From the NCBI RefSeq assembly GCF_014280195.1, contig NZ_CP047960.1:270001-302000 (forward strand): DNA of 32,000 bases, written 5' to 3'. This DNA is from Synechococcus sp. A15-24. GTDB taxonomy: Bacteria; Cyanobacteriota; Cyanobacteriia; PCC-6307; Cyanobiaceae. Position 1 is the first letter of the stretch. Every line of letters starts with the position of its first letter. A program made the position numbers and the translations under genes. Below the pieces are notes generated by a model. The model was not told where the DNA came from. It saw only the letters and a program-made list of their open reading frames with translations, and searched no databases. Shown in pieces: positions 7,144 through 25,530 of this stretch.

Positions 7144-8613
7144 GTGACCGTCGCCCCCGCCCGTCCCTACAACCGCAGCGACTGGGCCAGCTCCTTCGTC
7201 AACGTCGACGAGGAACTCACCGATGTAGCTCTCACCCCTGTACGAGGGGTCGTGCCGGCGGAGCTCCAAGGCACCTTTTACCGCAACGGTCCTGGCCGCT
7301 TGGAGCGGGATGGCCAGCGGGTCCATCACCCCTTTGATGGCGACGGCATGATCGCCGCCATGCGGTTTGACAACGGACGCGTCCAGCTGACCAATCGCTT
7401 CGTTCGCACCGAGGGCTTGCTGGCGGAGGAGAAGGCCGACAAGGTGTTGTACCGCGGTGTTTTTGGGAGTCAGAAGCCCGGCGGACGTTTGGCCAATGCC
7501 TTCGACCTGCGGTTGAAGAACATTGCCAACACCAATGTGGTTCGACTGGGGGACCAGCTCCTGGCTCTCTGGGAAGCGGCCGAGCCCCACGCCCTTGATC
7601 CTCAAAGCCTGGAAACGCGTGGGCTGTCACGGCTGGACGGCGTGCTGAAAAAGGGTGAGGCCTTCAGTGCCCACCCCCGCTTCGACCCCGGCCATAACGG
7701 CCGACCCAGCATGGTCACCTTTGGGGTCAAGACCGGTCCCCGCAGCACCATCCGCCTGATGGAATTCGCCACGGAGGGCCCTGACGCTGGAACCCTGCTG
7801 CACGATCGTTCCGACAACTTCCCTGGTTTCGCCTTCCTGCACGACTTCGCCATCACCCCCAATTGGGCGGTGTTCCTGCAGAACGCCATCGCCTTCAACC
7901 CCCTGCCTTTCGTCACCGGTGAAAAAGGGGCAGCCCAGTGCTTGCAGTCCAAACCGGGCGGCAAGGGGCGCTTCTGGCTGATTCCGCGGGATTCCGGCGA
8001 GTTCGCGGGGCAGAAGCCCCGCATCCTGGAAGCCCCTGAGGGCTTTGTTTTCCATCACCTCAACGCTTTTGAGGACGGCGATCACGTGGTGGTGGAGAGC
8101 ATCGTCTACGACGACTTCCCCTCCATCGGCCCTGACGATGACTTCGCCGAGGTGGATTTCGACACGGTGCCGAACGGAATCCTGCATCGCTGCCGCCTTG
8201 ATCTGAGCCGCGAGATAGTGAAGACCGAGCGGATTTCAGAGCGCACCTGCGAGTTCGCCATGGTGAACCCGGAGCGGCAGGGGCTGAGTGCCCAGTTCGC
8301 CTGGATGGCGGTGGCCGAGCGGGAGACTGGCAACGATCCGCTGCAGGCGATTCAGAAGTTGGATCTCAGCAGCGGTGCCACCCACACCTGGAGTGCTGCA
8401 CCCCGCGGATTCGTGAGTGAACCATTGATGGTGCGTCGTCCCGGTGCTGAAGCCGAAGACGACGGCTGGGTGCTCGATCTCGTCTGGAACGGTGCACGAC
8501 GGGCCTCCGATCTGGTGATCCTCAACGCCCGTGATCTGTCTGAAGTGGCGGTGCTGGAGCTGCCGTTGGCGGTGCCCCATGGGCTCCATGGCAGTTGGGC
8601 TGCAGAGTCCTGA
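7144..8613 (+). CDS. Carotenoid/apocarotenoid cleavage oxygenase (RPE65 family)
   Basis: Motifs FYRNGPGRLERDGQRVHHPFDGDGMI, HDFAITPNWAVF, FHHLNAFE and HGLHGSW are present, including the four-His iron ligand pattern. The start is GTG. Confidence 0.9.
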   Translation: MTVAPARPYNRSDWASSFVNVDEELTDVALTPVRGVVPAELQGTFYRNGPGRLERDGQRVHHPFDGDGMIAAMRFDNGRVQLTNRFVRTEGLLAEEKADKVLYRGVFGSQKPGGRLANAFDLRLKNIANTNVVRLGDQLLALWEAAEPHALDPQSLETRGLSRLDGVLKKGEAFSAHPRFDPGHNGRPSMVTFGVKTGPRSTIRLMEFATEGPDAGTLLHDRSDNFPGFAFLHDFAITPNWAVFLQNAIAFNPLPFVTGEKGAAQCLQSKPGGKGRFWLIPRDSGEFAGQKPRILEAPEGFVFHHLNAFEDGDHVVVESIVYDDFPSIGPDDDFAEVDFDTVPNGILHRCRLDLSREIVKTERISERTCEFAMVNPERQGLSAQFAWMAVAERETGNDPLQAIQKLDLSSGATHTWSAAPRGFVSEPLMVRRPGAEAEDDGWVLDLVWNGARRASDLVILNARDLSEVAVLELPLAVPHGLHGSWAAES

Positions 8614-8719
8614 GCTTTCCGTCAAATCTGGTCACATCTTCTCCGTTCTTTGACATTGCCTGGTTGCCTTCAGCGGCGGCTGCGGCGCTACAGCAGTTGA
8701 AGAGACCGCGGCGACAGGA

Positions 8720-9418
8720 ATGTTTGTGAAGGGCGAAAGGATTGCTGCGTGGACATTGCCTGTCTTGTCAGCCTGCATCCTTATTCCTTCGCCTCGCCCC
8801 CTGCGGGCGGAAACCTGGTCCTGTTCCGGAACCAGGCTGAAACTTTCGGTGCAGGAGCGGGGCCGCAGTGCAGTGGAGCGTTTTCGCTTTTCCCTGGCCG
8901 TTTCGGGTGAGGGAGCTGATGAGGCAAAAGCACTGCAGCAGCTCAACCGTCGTCTGGACAGCGTGCGCCGGGAGTTGAAGCCGCTGGTGCAGGGTCAGCT
9001 GGTTGTGCCAGCGCCCCACACCCACAAACGGGGACGAGCGTCAGAACAGCGCTACATGGCCAACACAGGCGTGTCCGGGCACGTCGGGCTGGGCACGTAC
9101 AACCGTTTGATTCAAGCGGTGGGTGGTATGCCAGGGGTGCGACTGCAGGGCATGGAATCTGTGGCGGCGCCAGAGAAGGAAGCTGCCCTGCGGCAGCGCT
9201 TGATGACGGACGCGTTGAATCAGGGTCAGGCTGATGCTGAAACGACGGCCCGGGCCATCGGTGCTTCGGAAGTCAGATTGCTAAGCATCGATCGTGCGGG
9301 GGCTATGGGCAGGCCAAGACCGTTGCGGATGGAGGCAGTCTCCCAGGGGTTTGATCCGGAGGAAGCTCCCGAACCAACGATCACCCTCCGCCTGCAACTG
9401 GAATACTGCCTCAGCTGA
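8720..9418 (+). CDS. SIMPL/DUF541-like periplasmic protein (tentative)
   Basis: It has a hydrophobic N-terminus and the overall DUF541-like pattern (…ALRQRLMTDALNQGQADAETTARAIGASEVRLLSI…TITLRLQLEY). This call comes from pattern memory only. Confidence 0.5.
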   Translation: MFVKGERIAAWTLPVLSACILIPSPRPLRAETWSCSGTRLKLSVQERGRSAVERFRFSLAVSGEGADEAKALQQLNRRLDSVRRELKPLVQGQLVVPAPHTHKRGRASEQRYMANTGVSGHVGLGTYNRLIQAVGGMPGVRLQGMESVAAPEKEAALRQRLMTDALNQGQADAETTARAIGASEVRLLSIDRAGAMGRPRPLRMEAVSQGFDPEEAPEPTITLRLQLEYCLS

Positions 9419-10958
9419 GTCCTTCTCGCTGCGCCTCCTTCCAGGCCAGCCGAGGAGCACTCCAAAGGGTGGCCAGCACCAGAGGGGTGACCGGTACGGC
9501 GGTGATCACGATGAAGGCCTGCAGCGCATCGATGGAGGTGCTGTCCCCCAGACCACTGCCGATGCGGAGCAGCACAAGGGTGAGGCTGCCGATCATCAGC
9601 GCCCAGAACAAGCGCAGCGGGGCAGGCGGTTCGTTGCGGCCACTCATCACCATGGCGGCCGCGTAGCTCATCGAGTCGGCACTGGTGCACATGAACAGCA
9701 CCACCAACACCAGTCCGATCGGGATCAGCAAACCGGCCAGGGGGAGTTGGCTGAGGATCGCGAATAGGGCAGCCGCTGCACCGTTCTGGGCCAGGGCCTC
9801 ACTGATTCCCGCACCCGCCAGTTCCAGTTGCAAGCCGGTGCCCCCGAGCAGGGTGAACCAGATGTTGGTCACGATCGGGCAGAGAATCGCAACGGCAAGC
9901 ACCAGCTCGCGGATGCTGCGGCCGCGGCTGACGCCAGCGGTGAAAAGTCCCATCAGTGGTGCATACCCAAGGAACCAGCCCCAGTAGAAGACCGTCCATC
10001 CGTTGATCCAGTTGCCCGGCGCCACGTTGGGCGTCAGGGCCATCCGAGGCAGGTGGATCAGATATGTGAGAAAGCCGCTGAAAAAGTGCTGAATCAGCCA
10101 CAGGCCAGGCCCGAGTAGCAGCAGCCCGGCCGCCATGGTGAGCGTCAGCCAGACGTTGAGTTCAGACAGCCACTTGATCCCCTTCTGAATGCCGCTGACG
10201 GTGGAGCTGGCGAAGACAGCGGTGAGCAGCACCACCACCAGCGATTGCAGCCCGGCGCTGTCGCTGAGCCAGGGCAGTTGGCCGGCGGCGTTGCTGAGTT
10301 GCAGCGAGAGAAATCCCAGGGGGCCAACCGTGCCGGCAATCGCGGCGACCACCGACAGCCCATCGGCCAGGTGACCGATCGGTCCATCCACCCAGCCCCG
10401 TGGCACGACATTCACCAGCAGGGTGCGTGGCCTGAGAGGCTCGCCCCGCCGTTCCAGGATCGAAAAGGTGATGGTGGTGGTGGTGGCCACCAGGGCCCAG
10501 GCGAGAAAGCCCCAGTGCAGAAAGCTCACCGCCAAGGCCGGATCCACCGCTTCTGCGGTGCCGCCCTGGATGCCTTCAAAAACGGGTGATGGGGTCTGGA
10601 AGTGATACAGCGGTTCAGCGGCAGACCAGAACACGCCCCCACCGGCCAGCAGGGTGCAGATCAGCACCGCGCACCAATCGAACAGTTTCAGGCTCGGTTT
10701 GGCCTCAGCTCCACCCAGCCGGAGTTTGCCGACGGGACTGATGGCAATGACCACGGCAATCAGAAACACCAGCAACACCATCCATTGCCACAGCCCGCCG
10801 AGGGCCGTGCTCACCACGGCTTTGCCGTTGTCGGTGAACTGCTTGGCCAGGGCGAGATCGATGGCTGACACCACCAAAAAGATCAGCAGCGGTGTGGCGC
10901 CGACCCACAGGGGTGGCTGTCGCCACCAGGACCGTTGGCTGGAGGATTGGATGGTCAT
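9411..10958 (-). CDS. BCCT-family (betaine/carnitine/choline-type) transporter
   Basis: It is a multi-TM protein with the BCCT signature region WTVFYWGWFLGYAPLMGLFTAGVSRGRSIRELV. Its ATG lies 3 nt after the stop of the upstream oxidase gene. Confidence 0.9.
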   Translation of the reverse strand: MTIQSSSQRSWWRQPPLWVGATPLLIFLVVSAIDLALAKQFTDNGKAVVSTALGGLWQWMVLLVFLIAVVIAISPVGKLRLGGAEAKPSLKLFDWCAVLICTLLAGGGVFWSAAEPLYHFQTPSPVFEGIQGGTAEAVDPALAVSFLHWGFLAWALVATTTTITFSILERRGEPLRPRTLLVNVVPRGWVDGPIGHLADGLSVVAAIAGTVGPLGFLSLQLSNAAGQLPWLSDSAGLQSLVVVLLTAVFASSTVSGIQKGIKWLSELNVWLTLTMAAGLLLLGPGLWLIQHFFSGFLTYLIHLPRMALTPNVAPGNWINGWTVFYWGWFLGYAPLMGLFTAGVSRGRSIRELVLAVAILCPIVTNIWFTLLGGTGLQLELAGAGISEALAQNGAAAALFAILSQLPLAGLLIPIGLVLVVLFMCTSADSMSYAAAMVMSGRNEPPAPLRLFWALMIGSLTLVLLRIGSGLGDSTSIDALQAFIVITAVPVTPLVLATLWSAPRLAWKEAQREGLS

Positions 10959-10961
10959 GCT

Positions 10962-12153
10962 TCAGGCTCGGACGGCATCGCGCTGGTGGCTCCAGCAGGT
11001 GAGGTCAACGGCGGGCTGCTCGCCGCAGGCCAGCCGTGCCAAGGAATCTCCGATCAGTGGCGCGAACTTGAAGGCCTGACCGGAGCCACCGGCGAAAAGG
11101 CTGAGGGTGGGGCTGAGGCGATCCAGCACGAAGTTCACATCGCTGGCCATGGAGTAGGGGCTCATAACCGTCTCCACCCGCTCTTGCACACCGGCCACCT
11201 CGTTGAACAGGAAGGTGTCCAGCAGTTCCACGAGCCTTTCCGGCGGCTCAGTGGCCATGGCATTGGGCTCAGCGACTCTGAGCTCTTTTGGTGCCCAGTC
11301 GATGCCGGCTTTGATCCGTGGCCGTCCATCGGCGGTGTGGCTCAGCACCGGGAAGGCGTAGTACAGGCCACCGTCGTCACCCCGTTCGCGCTGGAAGCAG
11401 AACCACTGGGGATAACGATCGGCGAGGGCCGGGTCGACGGTGTAGTGGGCCCAGAGCATCGGCCAGACCTCCAGTTTCGGCGCAAGGCCAAGGGGCGCCA
11501 GCAGCAGCTGAGTCCAGATGCCGCTGGTCACCACCACCTGGCCAGCACCGATGTGATGGCCGTTGTCCAGGGTCACGCCGGTTCCGTCGGCATCGATGCC
11601 TGCAACTGGGCAGTGCTCGATCAACTCCTGACCAGCTTGCCGGGCTGTGCGGGTCCAGTGGGCGATCACCTTGTCGCTGCGCACGGCACCGGCGGTCGGT
11701 TCGAACAATCCCGTGAACTCCGGCTTGGGCTTCAGCGGGAAACGCGCTCTGATGGCATCGGCATCAAGGGCTTCGTAGGGAATGCCCTGATCGTCCATCA
11801 CCCGGCGGGCGCCGGGGATTGAGCCTTCGATGGTCTCCTCGTCCCAGCTCTCGCCGTAAAACAGCAGGCCATGGGTTTCCCTGAGCTGCTCTCCGGCGTG
11901 GGTTTCCTCCTCCCGCCACAGACGGTTGGCCTCCTGGGCCAGGCGACAGAGCACCGGGTCGGAATACATCTCCCGGAACATCCTGGCCCACGCCAAAGCT
12001 GCTGGCTTTGGCGTGGGCCAGGGTCTTGGCTTCCAACAGCACCACATCACGGATGCCGCGGCGCGCCAGGGAAGCGGCGCAGCTGAGGCCAGCCATGCCA
12101 CCACCGACGATGACGACGGCCGCTTGGTTCGGCAGAGAGGAGGCTTGATTCAT
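10962..12153 (-). pseudogene. Monomeric sarcosine oxidase-like FAD-dependent amine oxidase (DAO family), interrupted by a 1-nt frameshift
   Basis: The N-terminus MNQASSLPNQAAVVIVGGGMAGLSCAASLARRGIRDVVLLEAKTLAHAKASSFGV (GxGxxG Rossmann) starts at ATG 12153 in one frame. The rest, ARMFREMYSDP...GGSGQAFKFAPLIGDSLARLA, continues in the frame of ORF 10962..12104. The switch is at the C-run 11987-11989. Confidence 0.8.
11982..12022. repeat. Perfect 18-bp inverted repeat with a 5-nt spacer, inside the oxidase gene at the frameshift site
   Basis: cctggcccacgccaaagc (11982-11999), tgctg, gctttggcgtgggccagg (12005-12022). The arms are exact reverse complements. Confidence 0.95.
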
Positions 12154-13205
12154 GCGGCGTCTCCGAAGCTGAGGCCGATGGGATCGGTGGCTGGGGCGGC
12201 TGCCACTTCGTTCAAAGCGGCTCCAACCGACAGGCCCTGATCGCGCTGGTTGAGGTAATCCGTGGCCCTGCGGCGCACTTCCTCCCGCACGAAGGCGTAA
12301 ACGTCCTTGGCGCCGGCATCCTTCCAGGCATCCGGCGAGAAGCGCTCGATCGAATCGGCGATCACAGCACCGGCGTTCACCAGGGGGTCCGGCAGGACGC
12401 GAATGCCCCGTTGACGCAATGCATCGGCTAGTTGAGGACTCTGGAACGGAGCATTGGCTGCCGGCACCACGGAGGTGACACGCAAGGCGGAGGCCATCTC
12501 CGCATTGATCAGACCGGAGATGGAACAGGGCAGCAGCAGGTCGAGCTTCAGTTCCCACCAAGGGCATCCCTGGGGAAGGGGCGTAGCACCGGGGAATCCA
12601 GCCCGCTCACGGCTGAGATCCACGGTGAACACGGTCCAGCCATGCTCCACCAAGGTTTGGGCCACAGTTCCCCCCACCGCGCCGCAGCCGTGCACCAGGG
12701 CACGGCCAGGTTTTGCATCCTTGAGTTCTGATTCGAGTACCGCTTCCACGGCGCCCAGGGTGCCGTGGGCCGTGGCGGCGCTGGCATCAACAGGACTGCC
12801 GACGGCAGCGAGCACATGTGGTGTCAGCTCTGTGAGCCTCTCCATGTCCTCGAGGCTGGTGTTGAGGTCACAGCCGGTGATCATGACCCCGTCAAGGGAC
12901 TTTAGCAGTTCTGCTGTCACGTTGATCAGCTCATCCTTGACGGCGGCGGGTTCCTTGGCCCGCGCCACGATCTTGCCGCCGGCAAAACCGGTGCCGTAAA
13001 GATCGTGCTTGTGGGTCATCAGGCCGGCCAGCCGCTCGCCGTCGGCGATACAGGCTTCATCGCTGGGGTAGTTCAGCAGGCGCAATCCACCGTTGGCGGG
13101 TCGCTTGGCATCGGTGTCCTCGGCCACCACAAACACCGAGAGATGGTCGGAGACGTGTTCCGCCAGCACCGAAACAGTCGGTGTGGGTCTGGTTGTGGTG
13201 GTCAT
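12150..13205 (-). CDS. Glu/Leu/Phe/Val-family amino-acid dehydrogenase (Leu/Phe dehydrogenase-like)
   Basis: It has the catalytic-Lys region NGGLRLLNY...MTHKHDLYGTGFAGGKIV and the NAD(P) fold ALVHGCGAVGGTVAQTL. ATG 13205 (MTTTTRP) shares one nt with the upstream stop (TGATG). Its stop overlaps the oxidase ATG (ATGA). Confidence 0.85.
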   Translation of the reverse strand: MTTTTRPTPTVSVLAEHVSDHLSVFVVAEDTDAKRPANGGLRLLNYPSDEACIADGERLAGLMTHKHDLYGTGFAGGKIVARAKEPAAVKDELINVTAELLKSLDGVMITGCDLNTSLEDMERLTELTPHVLAAVGSPVDASAATAHGTLGAVEAVLESELKDAKPGRALVHGCGAVGGTVAQTLVEHGWTVFTVDLSRERAGFPGATPLPQGCPWWELKLDLLLPCSISGLINAEMASALRVTSVVPAANAPFQSPQLADALRQRGIRVLPDPLVNAGAVIADSIERFSPDAWKDAGAKDVYAFVREEVRRRATDYLNQRDQGLSVGAALNEVAAAPATDPIGLSFGDAA

Positions 13206-14242
13206 CAGGCCACCTTCTCCATCATCTGGTGGTGCTCGACGTAATCGAGACTCCACTCACTCGGAGCATCCGCGATGCGCTGCTCCAGACGTGCGTAAAC
13301 CTGATCGGCCAACGCATCACCAGCAACACTGGCAAAGCTGTGGCGGCTCCAGCTGCGAATGGTGGCCATCAACCCAGCGGCAAAGCTGGCGGTGTCACCG
13401 TCCTCGTTCCAGCGACGGCGGTATGGACATTTCACGTACACCGTGCGCTCGTCGACCAGTCGCAGGCCATTGCGGTAGGGGGCTGAGGCCGTGTCCTTCA
13501 ACGGCGCCATGAATTCCTCTGGCGACTTGTAGAAGTTCAGTACGGTCCCTTTGCGGTACTGCTCCTCGCTGATCAGACCTTCATCGGCCATGCCGCGCCA
13601 GATCTGGTGCAACTGGTCGTGGACATTGCGGGTCTCACCACCGTTATGACCGAGGTAGCGACCTTCACCATCCCGGGACAGGTTCACCGTCAGCAGTCGT
13701 CCACCCACCTGCAGCTCCTTGCTGCGCAATTCCAGGATGTAGGTCCAGTCCTTGAGGGCCTGAGCGGTGAAACGCTGCAGGGCCTCAGCATCGCCGGAAG
13801 CCAGCACGTGGGTGTGGGTGTCCAGAGGACCCGGCGACGCACTGAGCCAGTGCATGGCCGTGGCGGAGAAGCCGAAACTCACCGTGTTCGGAGCCACAGC
13901 TGGCTCGTAGAAGCTGCGGGCGCTCACCAGCACCGTCGGTTTGGGTCCCCTGGGGATTTGCAGAGCCAGGTTCTCGGCCAGGGCCACGTTGTCGTTGCTC
14001 GGCAGGTCATTGCCGATCAGCGTCAGGTGAGCATCGGGCTGGTTGGCGTGCAGGCGGTCCAGCACCTGATGCCAGAGACCGACTGCGGTGCCACCATCGG
14101 CAGCTCCGTAATCGATCAGCACATGACTGGTTTGAGCAGTCAGTTGGTCAACACAAGTCAAGGCCCAGTCCGAGGCGGCTTCGATGCAGAGGAGAGCGCC
14201 TTCGGTCTGCGCGCTGTAACCCGTGGTCATGGCGATGGCCAT
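13205..14242 (-). CDS. SABATH-type (Methyltransf_7-like) SAM-dependent methyltransferase
   Basis: The SABATH hallmark blocks appear in order: VLIDYGAADGGTA, LIGNDLPSNDN, ARSFYEPAVAPNTVSFGFSATAMHWLS. An alternative start is ATG 14230. Confidence 0.8.
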   Translation of the reverse strand: MAIAMTTGYSAQTEGALLCIEAASDWALTCVDQLTAQTSHVLIDYGAADGGTAVGLWHQVLDRLHANQPDAHLTLIGNDLPSNDNVALAENLALQIPRGPKPTVLVSARSFYEPAVAPNTVSFGFSATAMHWLSASPGPLDTHTHVLASGDAEALQRFTAQALKDWTYILELRSKELQVGGRLLTVNLSRDGEGRYLGHNGGETRNVHDQLHQIWRGMADEGLISEEQYRKGTVLNFYKSPEEFMAPLKDTASAPYRNGLRLVDERTVYVKCPYRRRWNEDGDTASFAAGLMATIRSWSRHSFASVAGDALADQVYARLEQRIADAPSEWSLDYVEHHQMMEKVA

Positions 14243-14321
14243 CGACCTCGTCAGCGGCAGCCGTCACCGTACAGGACGCATTTGTCAGAGCTTCGTGACA
14301 GAGAGCACCTGCCTATCAAGG

Positions 14322-14900
14322 CTAGGCGGAGAGCAAGTCCCGCAACTGCGGTTCCAGCAGGGCAAAGGCCTTGCCGCGGTGGCCATGGGATTTTTTCTCC
14401 GTCAGCGGCATCTGAGCGAAGGTGAGCCCGGTGCCGCTCACTTCAAAAATCGGGTCGTAGCCAAAGCCGCAGTCGCCGCGGGGGGTTGTGGTGATCCAGC
14501 CATCACAATGCCCTTCCACTTCGATCAACACGCTGCCATCAGGGGAGACAACACAAAGTGCGGCACAGAACTGAGCGTCACGTTCGCTGGCGTTGCTCAG
14601 CGCCCCGAGCAGTTTTTCGATCCGTTCCGGGTCTGTGGGGGCGTAACGCGCCGAATGAACGCCTGGGGCTCCCCCCAGAGCGTTCACGCTCAACCCGGAA
14701 TCATCAGCAAGGGCCCAGCTGCCTGTCATGGCGGCCACAGCCGTGGCCTTGATCCGGGCATTGGCTGCGAATGTGCTGCCGGTCTCCTCCACATCAAACC
14801 CCTGCGGCTGCGCCTGAACGTTGAGAGGTAGGTGCTGCAGCAGGCCCTGAAATTCACGGATCTTGCCGGCGTTCCCGCTGGCGATCACCAGGGTTCTCAT
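14322..14900 (-). CDS. rdgB: Non-canonical purine NTP pyrophosphatase (RdgB/HAM1 family)
   Basis: MRTLVIASGNAGKIREF, DVEETGSTFAANARIKA, DDSGLSV and GFGYDPIF...SHRGKA are present. ATG 14900 overlaps the upstream stop (ATGA). I reject the track extension to 15017. Confidence 0.92.
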   Translation of the reverse strand: MRTLVIASGNAGKIREFQGLLQHLPLNVQAQPQGFDVEETGSTFAANARIKATAVAAMTGSWALADDSGLSVNALGGAPGVHSARYAPTDPERIEKLLGALSNASERDAQFCAALCVVSPDGSVLIEVEGHCDGWITTTPRGDCGFGYDPIFEVSGTGLTFAQMPLTEKKSHGHRGKAFALLEPQLRDLLSA

Positions 14901-16360
14901 GCGGCTTCGGCGTAACGCTTTGCCCAGGCCAGCACAGCACGGACCCGATCGCGATCCGGGGCTTCGCAGTACAGGCGCAGCAGGGGCTCCGTGCCGGAGA
15001 AGCGCAGCATCAGCCAATGGCTGGCGCCCATGCGCAGCTTGATGCCGTCTGTGGTGTTCACTTCAACCACCGCGGCACCGGCCACCTCCTGGGGTGTGGA
15101 GCTCGCCAGCAGGGTCTCCAGACGTCGTCGCGCCTCCATGTCCGGCAGCCGCAGGTCCAGCCGGTCGTAATGGCTGGCACCACTATGGCGTCGCTGCAGA
15201 GCGTCAAGTCGGCGGCCGAGGGGTTGGCCGCCTTCCACCAGCGCTTCCAGCACGAGCATCGCGGCGAACAGGGCATCCCGTTCCGGCAGATGCATGCCGA
15301 AGCCCACCCCCCCGGACTCCTCCCCACCGATCAGCACCTCACCCGTCAGCATCTCGCTGGCGATGTACTTGAACCCGACGGCTAGTTCCAGGACTTCACG
15401 GTCCTGAGCTTCTGCCACCAGGCGCATCAGATCGGAACCGCTCACAGTCTTCACCACCGTTCCAGGCAGCTGGCGGGCCCGGGCGAGATGGTCGATCAGC
15501 AGGGGCATCAGCAGCTGAGTACTGCAGAACCGACCGTTCTCATCCACGGCGGCGATGCGATCACCATCCCCATCGAAGACCAGACCCACCGCTGGTGTGC
15601 CCGCTGCCGTGGAGTGCTGAACCGCTGTGATCAGGTCGCTGAGGTATGGGGCCAGGGGTTCCGGTGGATGGCCGCCGAACAGGGGATCACGCGTGCTGCG
15701 GATCTCGTCCACCAACTCAGAGGCTTCAGGGCCGAGCAGATCGCTGACACAGCCGGCTGCAGATCCATGCATCGGGTCGACGAACACCTTCAGGTTCATC
15801 GCCTTCAGGCCCGTCACCAAAGCGGTGAGGTCCAATTTGCGACGCAATCCCTCAAGGTGCTCACCCCGCCCGTCGAAACGGCTGGTGGTCGCTGCAATGG
15901 GTGGTGTGATGCCGCCAGCCGCCAGGCGTCGCTCCACCGATGCGGTGAAGTCCCCCTCCACCGAGCCTCCGAAGGGACCTTTGATTTTCAGACCCAGCCA
16001 TTCAGGGGGGTTATGGCTGGCAGTGATCACCAGGGCTCCCAGCGCTTTGCGTTCCACCACCGCCCAGCTGCAGGCAGGTGTCGGCACGGGCGTCTCGGTG
16101 AGGAGTGGCTCAAGCTCGCAGCCACGCACGGCATTGGCGATGGCTTCCGCCAGTTCCGGTGCCAGGAAGCGGCGATCGAAGCCGATGATCACCGTGCGGC
16201 TGTTCAGACCGTCTGGTGCGCGATGGGCCAGCTCCTGGGCCGCTGCAGCTGCGACTGGCAGCAACCGCTCAACGGTGATGTCCACCCCCAGGACGCCGCG
16301 CCAGCCGTCGGTGCCGAACTTGATCGGCGCGGGTATGAGGCGGAGAGGTGCTGACGCCAT
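14897..16360 (-). CDS. alpha-D-phosphohexomutase (phosphoglucomutase/phosphomannomutase family)
   Basis: It has the active-site loop ITASHNPPEWLGLK, the metal loop FDGDGDRIAAVD and the sugar loop GGEESGG. Confidence 0.9.
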   Translation of the reverse strand: MASAPLRLIPAPIKFGTDGWRGVLGVDITVERLLPVAAAAAQELAHRAPDGLNSRTVIIGFDRRFLAPELAEAIANAVRGCELEPLLTETPVPTPACSWAVVERKALGALVITASHNPPEWLGLKIKGPFGGSVEGDFTASVERRLAAGGITPPIAATTSRFDGRGEHLEGLRRKLDLTALVTGLKAMNLKVFVDPMHGSAAGCVSDLLGPEASELVDEIRSTRDPLFGGHPPEPLAPYLSDLITAVQHSTAAGTPAVGLVFDGDGDRIAAVDENGRFCSTQLLMPLLIDHLARARQLPGTVVKTVSGSDLMRLVAEAQDREVLELAVGFKYIASEMLTGEVLIGGEESGGVGFGMHLPERDALFAAMLVLEALVEGGQPLGRRLDALQRRHSGASHYDRLDLRLPDMEARRRLETLLASSTPQEVAGAAVVEVNTTDGIKLRMGASHWLMLRFSGTEPLLRLYCEAPDRDRVRAVLAWAKRYAEAA

Positions 16361-22293: not shown

Positions 22294-25200
22294 TCAGACC
22301 AGCCCTTCCTGTTCAGCCAGTTCCCGCAGAGCCGCCACCTGCCAGCGGCGGCAGTCACCAGGAGATGCGGCATAGAACTGCCCCCAGGCTCGGGCTTTGT
22401 GCTGGCTATAGCTGGCGGCGCTCAGCGAGGGATGCGTCTGTTGCCAGCCCACACGCACGGAGTGGCCAATCACCACATCCAACGCCAGGTCGTCATCGAA
22501 GTGCACCTCCGGGTTGGCTTCCACGAAGGCCATCAGAGACAAGAGGCACTCCGTACAGAGCTGTCGATATTCCGGCGCCTGGATTCGGCTGAGCAGATGC
22601 TCCACCAACGTGGCGAAGTTCTTTTCCCCCGCAGTTTTCTCGAGGATCAGGCGGCTGTTCAGTCGATTGCGGCGTTCCAGCTTGTCGCCGACCACCAGGC
22701 CGCGGCAGTGGTGCAACAACGACCAGATGCCGGCATAAAAATCCCTGGGCACCTTCTGCAGTGAACCAAGACGGATGCGGTGCTGCAGCCAGTCGCCGCC
22801 GCTGGGGGGCTGGTCAATGGGATCCGGCACCTTCCACTGCACCCGGCCGGTGACATGCAGCTGCTCACCGCGCTGCAGGGCAGCCCTGGCATGTTCAACA
22901 TCGCTGAGGAGTTGTCGCAGCCGATCCCGGATCCGATGCGGTGAGCTGCTGCACAACGCTTCAAAGGCCTCGTCCTGGCTGAGCTGATCCTCTGCCGCCA
23001 GTTCAGAGGTGAGCAGCAGCAGCAGTTGACTGAGCTGCAGGGTGAGGATCCCTTTCAGCAGCCCGGGATCGCGCCGGGCCACGCCGTCCAGGGCCAGCAG
23101 CAGCTCCTGCTCAAGCATCCGCTCGCGTCCGTCCACCCCGCTGGTGCGTGCGATCCGTTCGGCGATGGCGCTGCTGTCTAGGGGGTGGCTGAGCCGTGCA
23201 TCAGCGGTGTAGTTGCGGCCCACGACCACCTGTTTCTGACGCACCAGCAGATCGGTCAGGGCATCCTCCAGTTGGGGATGGACCATGCCCATCGCACCGG
23301 CGCAGCGCCGCACCACACTCCAGTCCTGGCAGCGCAGTCCGCGGTGGTACACCTCCTCCAGCAACTGCTGAATCGTCACGCTGCGGCCGTGCGGACTGGT
23401 TTCAAGGGCCTTGGCTCCGAAGCGGCGTTGCAGCAGGTCCAGAACGTCGGCCTGTTCATGCAGCGACTGGGTGTTCCACAACCTCCTCCGCAGGACGTCC
23501 GCGTCGGTTTCGTCGAGCTCCTGTTCTTCAGCGGCCGTGAGATCGCGGAGGTCGGTGGCGTCCTGTAGCAGAGAGGATCGGCTCGGCTCCAGGGCCGTCG
23601 GCTCAGTGTCGGCCCCCCCCTCTCGCAGGGTCACCCAACTGGCCTGAATGGCCAGCTGTTTCAGTTGGTCGAACTGCACAGGGATGTCCCCGATGCGGCC
23701 GCTGAGCAGCGTTTGTCCCAGCTGCAGGAACACCTCGGGATGATGCTGGAAGGATTCATCGCTGACGGGGATCAACAGCAGCGGCAGCCCGGGACCACGC
23801 CAGTGACGCTTCAACAGATGGAGTTCATCCACCACGCTGTCCTCCAACTGAAGCGGGTCATCGGCCAGGTAGCTGATGCCGTCCTCCAGCACCGCCGTCG
23901 TGAAGGCCAGGGTCTGTTCCCCCAGGCGGTACAGCCGTGCGGTGTCTTCGGTTTCGGTGCGCTGCACCGGTTTGCCACTCAGGCCGAGCCTCGGATTGGC
24001 CCCGATAGAGCTCCACCGGGTTGCCAGGGCATCCGAGGGCTGGATTGTGATCCCATCACCACTGTCCAGCGGTAGGCCGGCATCGATCAGGGCCTGCCTG
24101 ACGAAGGTTGTCTCTGCAGCGAAGGCCACCAGCACGGCATCAGCTCCGAGCGCCATGGCCTGTCGCCGCTCGCACGGATCAAGATCCTCTGGGGTGATCA
24201 ACCCCTCCAGCAGCATTTCGCCCAGCCAGGCCAGGCTTTGCGTCCAGATCAGGGGGAGATTGCTGTTGGCCTGGCGAGGTTGGCTGCCGGGCTGTCTCCG
24301 TTCCGCTTCGACCCGATCAGCGGCCACCTGATACAGCTCGGGGTAAAGCGCTTCCCCATCCCGATGCACGGCCAGGGTTGTCAGCTTGTCCTGCCAGGAG
24401 CGGGCATCCTGCCAGCGTTCCTCGCAGCAGGCGGTGACCAGTTCAAAGGCCAGAAACAGCGGCCATTCCGATTCGATCCCTTCGAACTGGGCGAGCTCCT
24501 CCGGTTCGTAGTGAAGACGATTGATGTCTTCCACGGCGGTTTGATGGCCATCCCGGAGAAAGCGTTTGTAGCCATAGGTGCCTCCCAGTTCCCGTCGCAC
24601 CCGGCGCAGGGTCCGCTGCAACAGGTCCTGGTTTTCGATGGCCCAGGCCGGGAAGCCCACCACCGACAGGCAAGCGCTGTCGGCTTCCTTGCTGGCGGAT
24701 TCCCGCGGCAGCAGGCTTTCGAGCGCCCGCCGCAGACGAACCACAGCTCCCTGGGGGATGAGCAGTTGGCACGTCCCATCGCCGTGGACTTCGAAGAGGT
24801 CGAGGCCTTCCAGGGCCTCCAGAGCGGCTTTCGCCATGCCGATGGAGCTGGAATTGCGTTCGGGCAAGCCGTTGTTGCCTTTGTCGCCCCGTTCCCAGAT
24901 GCCGTAATCAGGGGTTCGATACGCCCGGGCGACGTAATACACGAGGTTCTGAATGAAATCCACCTCATCCCGGCTCTGGATCACGGTGCAGCCACCGCGG
25001 GTGAGTTGAGCCAGCTGGAGCAGAAACAGGGAGGTGGCATCGAGTTGCAGATGTCCCCAGGCGTCATCCGCCACCACCGGATCACCGCTGCTGCTGTCGT
25101 ACTTCGCGTGCAGAGCGTCGAGAGGATCGAGGCTCACTTTGAAGCGCTCCACCTTCCCGGCCTGGCGGAGCATGGCTCGCAGCAACCCCCGCATCAGCGC

Positions 25201-25482
25201 GATCACCCGTTGCTCGAGCTCCCAGGCCCGCCGGTCGTGGGCTCCATGGCGGCGACGGTGGGCCATGGCCAGAGCCCAGACGCACTGCACGGAGTAGACA
25301 CAGTCCCGCACCCAGGCATCGCCGTAGTTGCCGTGAACCGTGTGGGCGGTGCTGGCGGGCAGCAAACCACTAATTGGGTCCTGGCGTTGCAGCACCACCT
25401 GCTCAATCGAATGATCGAGCCGAGCCAGGACTGAATCGCGATGATCTTGATCCTGTTGGGTCTGTGTTGCCGTCACCACCAT
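22294..25482 (-). CDS. Large GH15-domain protein resembling phosphorylase kinase alpha/beta regulatory subunits
   Basis: It has N-terminal glucoamylase-like (GH15) motifs (GNYGDAWVRDCVYSV, LQLDATSLFLLQLAQ, DYGIWERGDK), followed by about 600 aa of helical extension. The track start at 25515 is TTG, and the first ATG is at 25482. Confidence 0.7.
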   Translation of the reverse strand: MVVTATQTQQDQDHRDSVLARLDHSIEQVVLQRQDPISGLLPASTAHTVHGNYGDAWVRDCVYSVQCVWALAMAHRRRHGAHDRRAWELEQRVIALMRGLLRAMLRQAGKVERFKVSLDPLDALHAKYDSSSGDPVVADDAWGHLQLDATSLFLLQLAQLTRGGCTVIQSRDEVDFIQNLVYYVARAYRTPDYGIWERGDKGNNGLPERNSSSIGMAKAALEALEGLDLFEVHGDGTCQLLIPQGAVVRLRRALESLLPRESASKEADSACLSVVGFPAWAIENQDLLQRTLRRVRRELGGTYGYKRFLRDGHQTAVEDINRLHYEPEELAQFEGIESEWPLFLAFELVTACCEERWQDARSWQDKLTTLAVHRDGEALYPELYQVAADRVEAERRQPGSQPRQANSNLPLIWTQSLAWLGEMLLEGLITPEDLDPCERRQAMALGADAVLVAFAAETTFVRQALIDAGLPLDSGDGITIQPSDALATRWSSIGANPRLGLSGKPVQRTETEDTARLYRLGEQTLAFTTAVLEDGISYLADDPLQLEDSVVDELHLLKRHWRGPGLPLLLIPVSDESFQHHPEVFLQLGQTLLSGRIGDIPVQFDQLKQLAIQASWVTLREGGADTEPTALEPSRSSLLQDATDLRDLTAAEEQELDETDADVLRRRLWNTQSLHEQADVLDLLQRRFGAKALETSPHGRSVTIQQLLEEVYHRGLRCQDWSVVRRCAGAMGMVHPQLEDALTDLLVRQKQVVVGRNYTADARLSHPLDSSAIAERIARTSGVDGRERMLEQELLLALDGVARRDPGLLKGILTLQLSQLLLLLTSELAAEDQLSQDEAFEALCSSSPHRIRDRLRQLLSDVEHARAALQRGEQLHVTGRVQWKVPDPIDQPPSGGDWLQHRIRLGSLQKVPRDFYAGIWSLLHHCRGLVVGDKLERRNRLNSRLILEKTAGEKNFATLVEHLLSRIQAPEYRQLCTECLLSLMAFVEANPEVHFDDDLALDVVIGHSVRVGWQQTHPSLSAASYSQHKARAWGQFYAASPGDCRRWQVAALRELAEQEGLV

Positions 25483-25530
25483 GACCCGTCTTGTCGCCGC
25501 TTTTAAATTCTCCAATGCAGCCCTTCGGCG

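Follow-up and report, generated by a model that had tools for sequence, protein, structure and literature searches.

A conserved four-gene block of marine Synechococcus as a candidate operon for synthesis of the betaine homarine

The genome of Synechococcus sp. A15-24 carries, within a stretch of 32,000 nucleotides that was analyzed as a whole (contig NZ_CP047960.1, positions 270,001 to 302,000; hereafter the window), a block of four tightly coupled genes encoding a SABATH-type methyltransferase, an amino acid dehydrogenase of the ELFV family, a flavoprotein oxidase resembling NikD and a carrier of the BCCT family. This block is probably an operon that encodes the synthesis of homarine (N-methylpicolinate), a compatible solute of the betaine type, and also a carrier for it. 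On balance, and with more caution, we also favor the wider view that the module represents the missing homarine pathway common to marine Synechococcus, diatoms and other algae, in which case it would bring with it the first gene for the orphan lysine 2-dehydrogenase activity EC 1.4.1.15 and the first picolinate N-methyltransferase of microbial origin.

Proposed pathway

In the route that we propose, the ELFV dehydrogenase would remove the 2-amino group of L-lysine, and the resulting 2-oxo-6-aminohexanoate would cyclize spontaneously to delta1-piperideine-2-carboxylate. The NikD-like flavoprotein oxidase would take four electrons from this compound to form picolinate, the SABATH-type methyltransferase would transfer the methyl group of S-adenosylmethionine (SAM) to the ring nitrogen next to the anchoring carboxylate to give homarine, and the BCCT carrier would retake homarine that has leaked out or is present externally. 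The sequence lysine, piperideine-2-carboxylate, picolinate, homarine is the shortest chemistry that uses each of the three enzymes once. The enzyme families involved are known and the first two proposed steps have a precedent in nikkomycin synthesis, while the substrate and each of the reactions are what we infer from the comparisons given below. A preliminary description of this DNA had already outlined a path from an amino acid through a cyclized imino acid and flavin-dependent ring oxidation to N-methylation, ending in a betaine of the homarine type, and this outline gains support from the gene fusions and operons, the polar pocket of the dehydrogenase and the kinship of the oxidase with NikD.

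The three enzymes as a conserved unit

Picocyanobacteria were scanned with one genome per species, and the methyltransferase was found at 79-92% identity in more than 50 marine Synechococcus genomes, including WH7803, WH8017, RCC307 and several MIT strains. Of about 50 Synechococcus loci, all that are complete keep the gene order (methyltransferase, dehydrogenase, oxidase, BCCT) along with the tight spacing, that of RCC307 from subcluster 5.3 included. The same four genes in this order, with BCCT last, are also present in one Myxococcota genome and one unidentified bacterium, and in Okeania the three enzymes are encoded beside an OpuAC betaine-binding protein. The presence of such betaine-type transporters beside the enzymes is in keeping with an end product that is zwitterionic.

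A search of 1.8 billion representative proteins revealed long proteins with the methyltransferase at one end, which Pfam and BLAST comparisons showed to combine either all three enzymes or two of them in one chain. The three-domain proteins are arranged as dehydrogenase-oxidase-methyltransferase and also as methyltransferase-dehydrogenase-oxidase, and carriers of fusions include Shewanella surugensis, Tribonema minus, Porphyridium purpureum, Pterosperma and an alga listed as 'Nep...'. With a profile built from the fusions, dehydrogenase-oxidase fusions were detected in the diatoms Nitzschia, Cylindrotheca, Pseudo-nitzschia and Cyclotella and probably also in Chaetoceros and Corethron, and the same profile gave matches in Dunaliella, Pycnococcus and the Pavlovales. 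In both of the diatom genomes inspected the dehydrogenase-oxidase fusion stands head-to-head with a Methyltransf_7 gene, the two being divergently oriented and 450-600 bp apart (Nitzschia inconspicua, locus L069, 8230-12547; Cylindrotheca closterium, locus L070, 8286-12660), and the methyltransferase of Nitzschia, the one diatom compared in this respect, is a homologue of the window enzyme. Independent fusions, and a linkage that is conserved in bacteria and eukaryotes alike, argue strongly that the three proteins belong to a single pathway. The divergent diatom genes likely share a bidirectional promoter; the pair is also a rare case of metabolic genes kept together in a eukaryote.

The three-enzyme set is abundant in ocean metagenomes, where clusters of the methyltransferase have hundreds of members. 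The Okeania locus (Okeania sp. SIO2C2, L058, 1-12625) comprises OpuAC, dehydrogenase, methyltransferase and a divergently oriented oxidase, and it adjoins a large non-ribosomal peptide synthetase gene and a flavin monooxygenase with a weak match to lysine/ornithine N-oxygenases. In this organism a secondary metabolite might also draw on picolinate or related compounds.

Dehydrogenase

The dehydrogenase gene (12150-13205, minus strand) encodes 351 amino acids from its ATG, and we propose its product as an NAD(P)-dependent L-lysine 2-dehydrogenase. Both ELFV_dehydrog (PF00208, 7e-17) and ELFV_dehydrog_N (PF02812) are matched above cutoff. The protein is about 30% identical to leucine, tryptophan and phenylalanine dehydrogenases, with which it shares the fold, the cofactor site and the catalytic Lys/Lys/Asp residues (equivalents of Lys68, Lys80 and Asp115), and the motifs 'KH', 'GGK' and 'TGCD' are conserved. 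Unlike those enzymes it has an Asn/Asp side-chain pocket and an invariant Cys within 'TGCD'.

Specificity in the ELFV family is set by two pocket positions, occupied by Leu40 and Val294 in leucine dehydrogenase and by Lys89 and Ser380 in glutamate dehydrogenase. In a multiple alignment, Asn takes the place of Leu40 and Asp that of Val294, both invariant from Synechococcus to diatoms, and the position of Ala113 of leucine dehydrogenase is occupied by Gly in this family. The hydrophobic pocket of leucine dehydrogenase (Leu40, Ala113, Val291 and Val294) is not found here, so that the protein belongs to the ELFV dehydrogenases without being a leucine dehydrogenase. Nor does it qualify as the tryptophan dehydrogenase ScyB (NCBIfam NF035922), against which it scores 95.7 bits with an equivalog cutoff of 600. 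To judge from these residues, a polar and acidic pocket points to a substrate with a basic side chain. Lysine dehydrogenase (deaminating, cyclizing), EC 1.4.1.15, yields exactly piperideine-2-carboxylate from lysine, and we know of no gene that has been assigned to this orphan activity.

Oxidase

The oxidase gene (10962-12153, minus strand) encodes a flavoprotein of the MSOX family, as the preliminary description had stated. The DAO fold is recognized at 4e-30, with a GGGMAG motif of the GxGxxG type. The best match of the single protein in the PDB is NikD at 121 bits, and a profile of the family run against the whole PDB ranks NikD first (192 bits), followed by sarcosine oxidase (166 bits) and N-methyltryptophan oxidase (144 bits). 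Against the NCBIfam model of the N-methyltryptophan oxidase SolA (NF008425) the score was 144 bits, short of the equivalog cutoff of 257.

Residues that set NikD apart point the same way. The loop of NikD bearing Glu101 is shared, with 'ETIEGS' aligned to 'TNEGQ' of NikD, and is deleted in sarcosine and N-methyltryptophan oxidases; Asp276 of NikD is shared as well ('KAGIDW' aligned to 'CGPDF'), a position that is His in these other oxidases. The equivalents of Glu101 and Asp276 are invariant and are kept in the diatom fusions too, and two further motifs, WFxF and AFKF, are common to the oxidase and NikD and are not found in sarcosine and N-methyltryptophan oxidases. In all, the window oxidase keeps Arg53, Glu101, Tyr258, Asp276 and Lys358 of NikD.

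NikD oxidizes piperideine-2-carboxylate to picolinate after 2-deamination of lysine by NikC. This NikC/NikD branch of nikkomycin synthesis in Streptomyces tendae thus contains the closest relative of the oxidase among solved structures, and the first two steps proposed here would pass through the same intermediates. The two systems would differ in that the 2-deamination of lysine is assigned here to an NAD(P)-dependent ELFV dehydrogenase and is carried out there by the aminotransferase NikC, and in that picolinate would be methylated to a solute here, whereas it is built into an antibiotic there. Oxidase-aminotransferase fusions (P0445-P0447, including Actinoplanes) were also considered as an analogue of NikC plus NikD. 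Their oxidase domains are about 40% identical to the sarcosine oxidase 7exs and only 27-28% identical to NikD, and they lack the signature residues, so this lead was dropped.

Methyltransferase and carrier

The methyltransferase gene (13205-14242, minus strand) encodes a SAM-dependent enzyme of 345 amino acids, which we propose as a picolinate N-methyltransferase, that is, homarine synthase. Its assignment to the SABATH family had been made beforehand and stands, since Methyltransf_7 (PF03492) is matched over residues 44-328 with 76.4 bits (3e-21) against a cutoff of 29.8. Among solved structures the closest is the fatty-acid O-methyltransferase 5f2k of Mycobacterium marinum (1.8e-17), followed by plant salicylate methyltransferase. 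The segment 'ATAMHWLS' aligns with 'SSWAIQWLS' of 5f2k, and the motif 'TAMHWLS', which holds the carboxylate-binding Trp of SABATH enzymes (Trp151 of salicylate methyltransferase, SAMT), is kept in most of the subfamily members examined.

Pfam family, fold and carboxylate-holding Trp are thus common to this enzyme, the plant trigonelline and caffeine synthases, salicylate methyltransferase and the M. marinum enzyme. It differs from known SABATH enzymes in belonging to a distinct subfamily of microbes and algae with 'TAMHWLS' as its hallmark, in being at most 25-30% identical to the solved members, and in its fixed partnership or fusion with the dehydrogenase and the oxidase. Plant SABATH members can methylate a pyridine nitrogen. 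Alignment does not decide between oxygen and ring nitrogen as the methyl acceptor, and it is the accompanying betaine transporters that argue for N-methylation.

The subfamily is wider than the module. In a Thioglobus-type cluster of methyltransferases (P0132/P0306, 40% identity) no dehydrogenase lies beside the gene, and the methyltransferase alone is therefore not a marker. On a TARA scaffold of this type (L063), the methyltransferase, of 40% identity and from a cluster of 444, adjoins a PNPOx-like protein, amidohydrolases and a mandelate racemase-like enzyme, with a DAO gene at the edge of the locus. This locus may mark a different and also undescribed pathway. Stand-alone eukaryote-like methyltransferases (P0154 and P0164) were followed up for their origin and proved uninformative, lying on short metagenome contigs.

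The last gene of the block (9411-10958, minus strand) encodes a carrier of 515 amino acids with a full-length match to BCCT (PF02028; 429.6 bits, 1.7e-128, residues 19-506). It scored 298.6 bits against the model of the glycine betaine BCCT transporter (NCBIfam NF047988), whose equivalog cutoff is 650, and our literature search found no mention of BCCT in Cyanorak-based papers. A role in uptake or recapture of the betaine product, already suggested in the preliminary description, accords with the recurrence of betaine-type transporters (BCCT and OpuAC) with the unit, and import would be the direction of transport.

Homarine producers and salt response

Homarine was found in both Synechococcus strains tested, at up to 400 mM in WH8102 and 4-5 mM in WH7803, as well as in four of six diatoms and one Emiliania strain (PMC8269262). 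Thalassiosira pseudonana has also been reported with homarine as an osmolyte. An intact block is present in WH7803 (locus L007), and for WH8102 a 2010 study reported a predicted operon that consists of SYNW0229 (BCCT), SYNW0230 (putative sarcosine oxidase), SYNW0231 (hypothetical), SYNW0232 (possible leucine dehydrogenase) and SYNW0233 (conserved hypothetical) (PMC2874817). Both Synechococcus strains known to make homarine therefore carry the block, WH8102 according to the literature, and Synechococcus and diatoms, which share the module, are the reported main producers. Of the possibilities considered earlier homarine has the best support, trigonelline, N-methylpipecolate, a DMSP-like route and catabolism being less well supported.

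The WH8102 genes also respond to salt. Two hours after addition of 0.125 M NaCl, SYNW0230, SYNW0232 and SYNW0233 were among 102 genes changed on a microarray at a 1% false discovery rate, with a mean log2 increase of 0.40-0.47, alongside ggpS and proV (PMC2874817). The glycine betaine cluster of marine Synechococcus (GSMT/SDMT with ProVWX; SYNW1913-1917) follows the same design, in that SAM-dependent betaine synthesis is encoded beside a betaine transporter, and is likewise salt-induced in WH8102; it differs from the block in its unrelated enzymes, its glycine precursor and its use of an ABC transporter instead of a BCCT carrier.

Homarine is the most abundant metabolite measured in North Pacific particles, where it accounts for up to 3% of particulate carbon, and its synthesis was called uncharacterized in 2021 (PMC8269262). 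Production of homarine is consequently not traceable by gene-based methods. In the literature searched, up to mid-2026, we found no paper describing genes for homarine synthesis and none linking homarine with SABATH enzymes or with a synthesis gene cluster, in agreement with the earlier impression that this combination of enzymes is not a described pathway. The genes for its breakdown were described only in 2026, in a paper that names producers and gives no synthesis genes (PMC13236597). These genes, homABCDER of heterotrophic bacteria, open the homarine ring to yield N-methylglutamate (PMC13236597); they concern the same metabolite but act in the opposite direction, with different enzymes, and bear no relation to the block. 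The block thus makes an open question in marine biochemistry, the synthesis of homarine, directly testable. If the proposal is true, homarine production would become traceable in ocean genomes and transcriptomes: the three enzymes as a marker set would allow producers to be mapped and might help to explain the 100-fold gap between WH8102 and WH7803. The module would also provide a short and transferable route to a pyridine betaine.

Alternative explanations

Several observations weigh against the homarine pathway as proposed. The dehydrogenase argument would suit ornithine or another basic amino acid as well as lysine, and one of three pairwise alignments has a gap at the Val294 position, which is absent from the other two and from the multiple alignment. 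The oxidase is only about 30% identical to NikD, its invariant Ser ('SPY') at the position of the FAD-binding Cys321 makes the covalent FAD attachment of NikD through this residue impossible, and Trp355 is replaced by Gln or Arg. The closest solved relatives of the methyltransferase are O-methyltransferases. With regard to distribution, WH8102, CC9605 and CC9311 were not among the matches of the picocyanobacterial scan, which for WH8102 was a miss, as the literature shows; Emiliania huxleyi is not among the named matches of the fusion profile; and several of the fusion carriers are not known as homarine producers, our literature search having found no homarine reports for Porphyridium, Nephroselmis, Tribonema or Pterosperma. 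WH7803, with its block intact, holds about 100 times less homarine than WH8102. In WH8102 itself, SYNW0233 would, from its place in the gene order, be the methyltransferase, and the dehydrogenase is annotated as two open reading frames, SYNW0231 and SYNW0232, both placed in valine, leucine and isoleucine metabolism in KEGG (PMC2874817, additional files 6 and 11). This split may represent a frameshift in the top homarine producer or an error in the 2003 sequence.

These points leave room for a reading that we regard as rather unlikely, in which the same three-enzyme logic leads to another product, such as a betaine or ester derived from ornithine or another basic amino acid, a partly oxidized solute of the piperideine or N-methylpipecolate type, or the carboxyl methyl ester of picolinate in place of the N-methyl betaine. 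The Asn/Asp pocket calls for a basic or polar side chain and not for lysine specifically, an oxidase without the covalent Cys and Trp355 of NikD may stop after two electrons, the solved methyltransferases closest to ours act on carboxyl oxygens, and fusions exist in algae for which we know of no report of homarine. An ornithine-derived pyrrole carboxylate or a methyl ester would, however, not be zwitterionic, and the recurrent BCCT or OpuAC partner and the salt induction would be left unexplained. The invariance of the NikD-specific Glu101 and Asp276, and the sharing of the module by Synechococcus and diatoms, also speak for homarine.

It is highly improbable that the block is instead a catabolic or scavenging operon, in which the BCCT carrier would import an N-methylated amino acid or a betaine, the MSOX-like oxidase would demethylate it and the dehydrogenase would deaminate the product for nitrogen. 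BCCT carriers do import betaines, the weak best NCBIfam matches of the oxidase are N-methyltryptophan oxidase and sarcosine oxidase (both below cutoff), and SYNW0230 of WH8102 is annotated as solA (PMC2874817). A SAM-dependent methyltransferase would nevertheless have no role in demethylation, yet many organisms have it fused to the dehydrogenase and the oxidase; the His of sarcosine oxidases is missing from the oxidase, which falls with NikD; the genes rise upon salt upshift together with osmolyte synthesis genes; and homarine catabolism as it is known from heterotrophs relies on other genes, those of the homABCDER operon (PMC13236597).

Least credible of all is a route in which methionine would be deaminated, S-methylated and oxidized to a sulfonium compound resembling DMSP, for although BCCT carriers also move DMSP and a deaminating enzyme, a methyltransferase and an oxidase loosely resemble parts of DMSP pathways, the invariant Asp and Asn of the side-chain pocket are ill-suited to methionine, the unit has no reductase or decarboxylase, the oxidase bears the imino-acid signature of NikD, and to our knowledge no SABATH enzyme is an S-methyltransferase.

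Organization of the locus

The block corresponds to four open reading frames on the minus strand at 9411-14242, with positions read in the window. The stop codon of the methyltransferase (TGA, 13207-13205) and the ATG of the dehydrogenase (13205-13203) have one A in common, the dehydrogenase stop and oxidase start overlap as ATGA (12153-12150), and the oxidase stop (TGA, 10964-10962) is separated by the three bases 'agc' from the ATG of the BCCT gene (10958-10956). All four families scored above the Pfam gathering thresholds in the searches with PF03492, PF00208/PF02812, PF01266 and PF02028, and none of the four proteins attains an equivalog cutoff in NCBIfam. The families are thus clear, and the specific function of each protein is not one already named.

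On one side the block is flanked by genes for FabI, HisB, an RPE65-type carotenoid oxygenase and a SIMPL/DUF541 protein, and on the other by those for Ham1/RdgB and a phosphohexomutase. G+C content is flat across the block (0.62-0.65), and no mobility genes were seen around it in the window. With these features and the same flanks in all Synechococcus loci, the block does not have the character of a genomic island or mobile element. The near-zero spacing of the four minus-strand genes with their three junctions, the core-type neighbors and the absence of mobility genes had all been set out in the preliminary description, and each was borne out.

The spacer between rdgB and the methyltransferase (14243-14321, minus strand) probably serves, from the comparison of loci, as promoter and short leader for the four genes. 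It contains a -10-like hexamer, TACGGT (14271-14266), and a ribosome-binding site, GAGG (14249-14246). About 40 nucleotides before the methyltransferase ATG are conserved in 12 Synechococcus loci, subcluster 5.3 included, and in all 12 the hexamer fits TAnnnT. The two elements lie 24-31 (TAnnnT) and 4-9 (GAGG) bases upstream of the ATG and are kept even in a deletion relic of the block (see below), which suggests that the block has its own putative promoter. A generic sigma-70 promoter and terminator scan did no better than on shuffled sequence and found nothing in the spacer, so that the promoter function assigned to it comes from this conservation. A riboswitch or other known RNA upstream of or inside the block was also considered and discarded, the Rfam scan of 8500-15500 having given a single match at chance level.

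Frameshift in the oxidase gene

In the window the oxidase gene is not one open reading frame, a circumstance that the preliminary description, otherwise right about the junctions, had only hinted at by speaking of a 'repaired operon'. The first approximately 55 codons (11988-12153, minus strand), which include the GGGMAG FAD-binding motif and match positions 2-44 of the DAO profile, lie in one frame, and the remaining 340 (10962-11987, minus strand, DAO) lie in another, 396 amino acids in all once repaired. Alignment with the closest relative, a metagenome contig (L062) of 97% DNA identity, showed 88 substitutions and one insertion or deletion over 3 kb. The latter falls at 11987-11990 (minus strand), where a +1 frameshift results from TGGG in the window in place of AAA. 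AAA is present in L062 and all other relatives, giving Gly-Glu-Thr-Arg-Met, and the oxidase is uninterrupted in every other complete locus (about 50 other Synechococcus genomes).

The frameshift represents either an inactivating lesion confined to this strain or an error in the sequence. TGGG for AAA is a compound change, with three substitutions and one inserted base in a background of 97% identity, and it resembles a local error, or one unusual mutational event, more than ordinary divergence. If the window sequence is correct, the source strain cannot complete the proposed picolinate-forming step.

Inheritance and loss in picocyanobacteria

In subclusters 5.1 and 5.3 the block occupies the same chromosomal site with the same neighbors, and it is therefore old and vertically inherited, not an island. 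It is also not universal and not linked to catabolic genes, so that the biosynthetic role put forward earlier stands in this respect. One Prochlorococcus single-cell genome has the methyltransferase at 55% identity. In the single-cell genome of Prochlorococcus sp. AG-321-D23 (L053, 7998-11288), the three enzymes are encoded at 49-55% identity with no BCCT gene, and the neighbors, which include phosphoribosyltransferase-like, helix-hairpin-helix and VTT-domain proteins, differ from those in Synechococcus.

In the metagenome-assembled genome (MAG) Synechococcus xHP1_bin.305 (L056, 8001-8340), the leader and the first 57 codons of the methyltransferase are joined to the 3' part of the BCCT gene, after which the usual DUF541 and carotenoid oxygenase genes follow. 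This relic is the scar left by one deletion that removed about 4 kb, and it shows that the block can be lost. With a fused remnant in one genome and a frameshift in the window, the block is a clear example of an ancestral accessory operon that has been lost repeatedly.

Additional observations

A record titled as the MAG Salipiger bermudensis 3um_C4B0804_5.29 (L008) contains the whole Synechococcus block with its flanks at 73-94% protein identity, and its alphaproteobacterial assignment most probably results from erroneous binning in the public record. Elsewhere in the window, a minus-strand gene at 22294-25515 encodes a protein of 1073 amino acids in which a domain of glycoside hydrolase family 15 is joined to a phosphorylase-kinase C-terminal domain.

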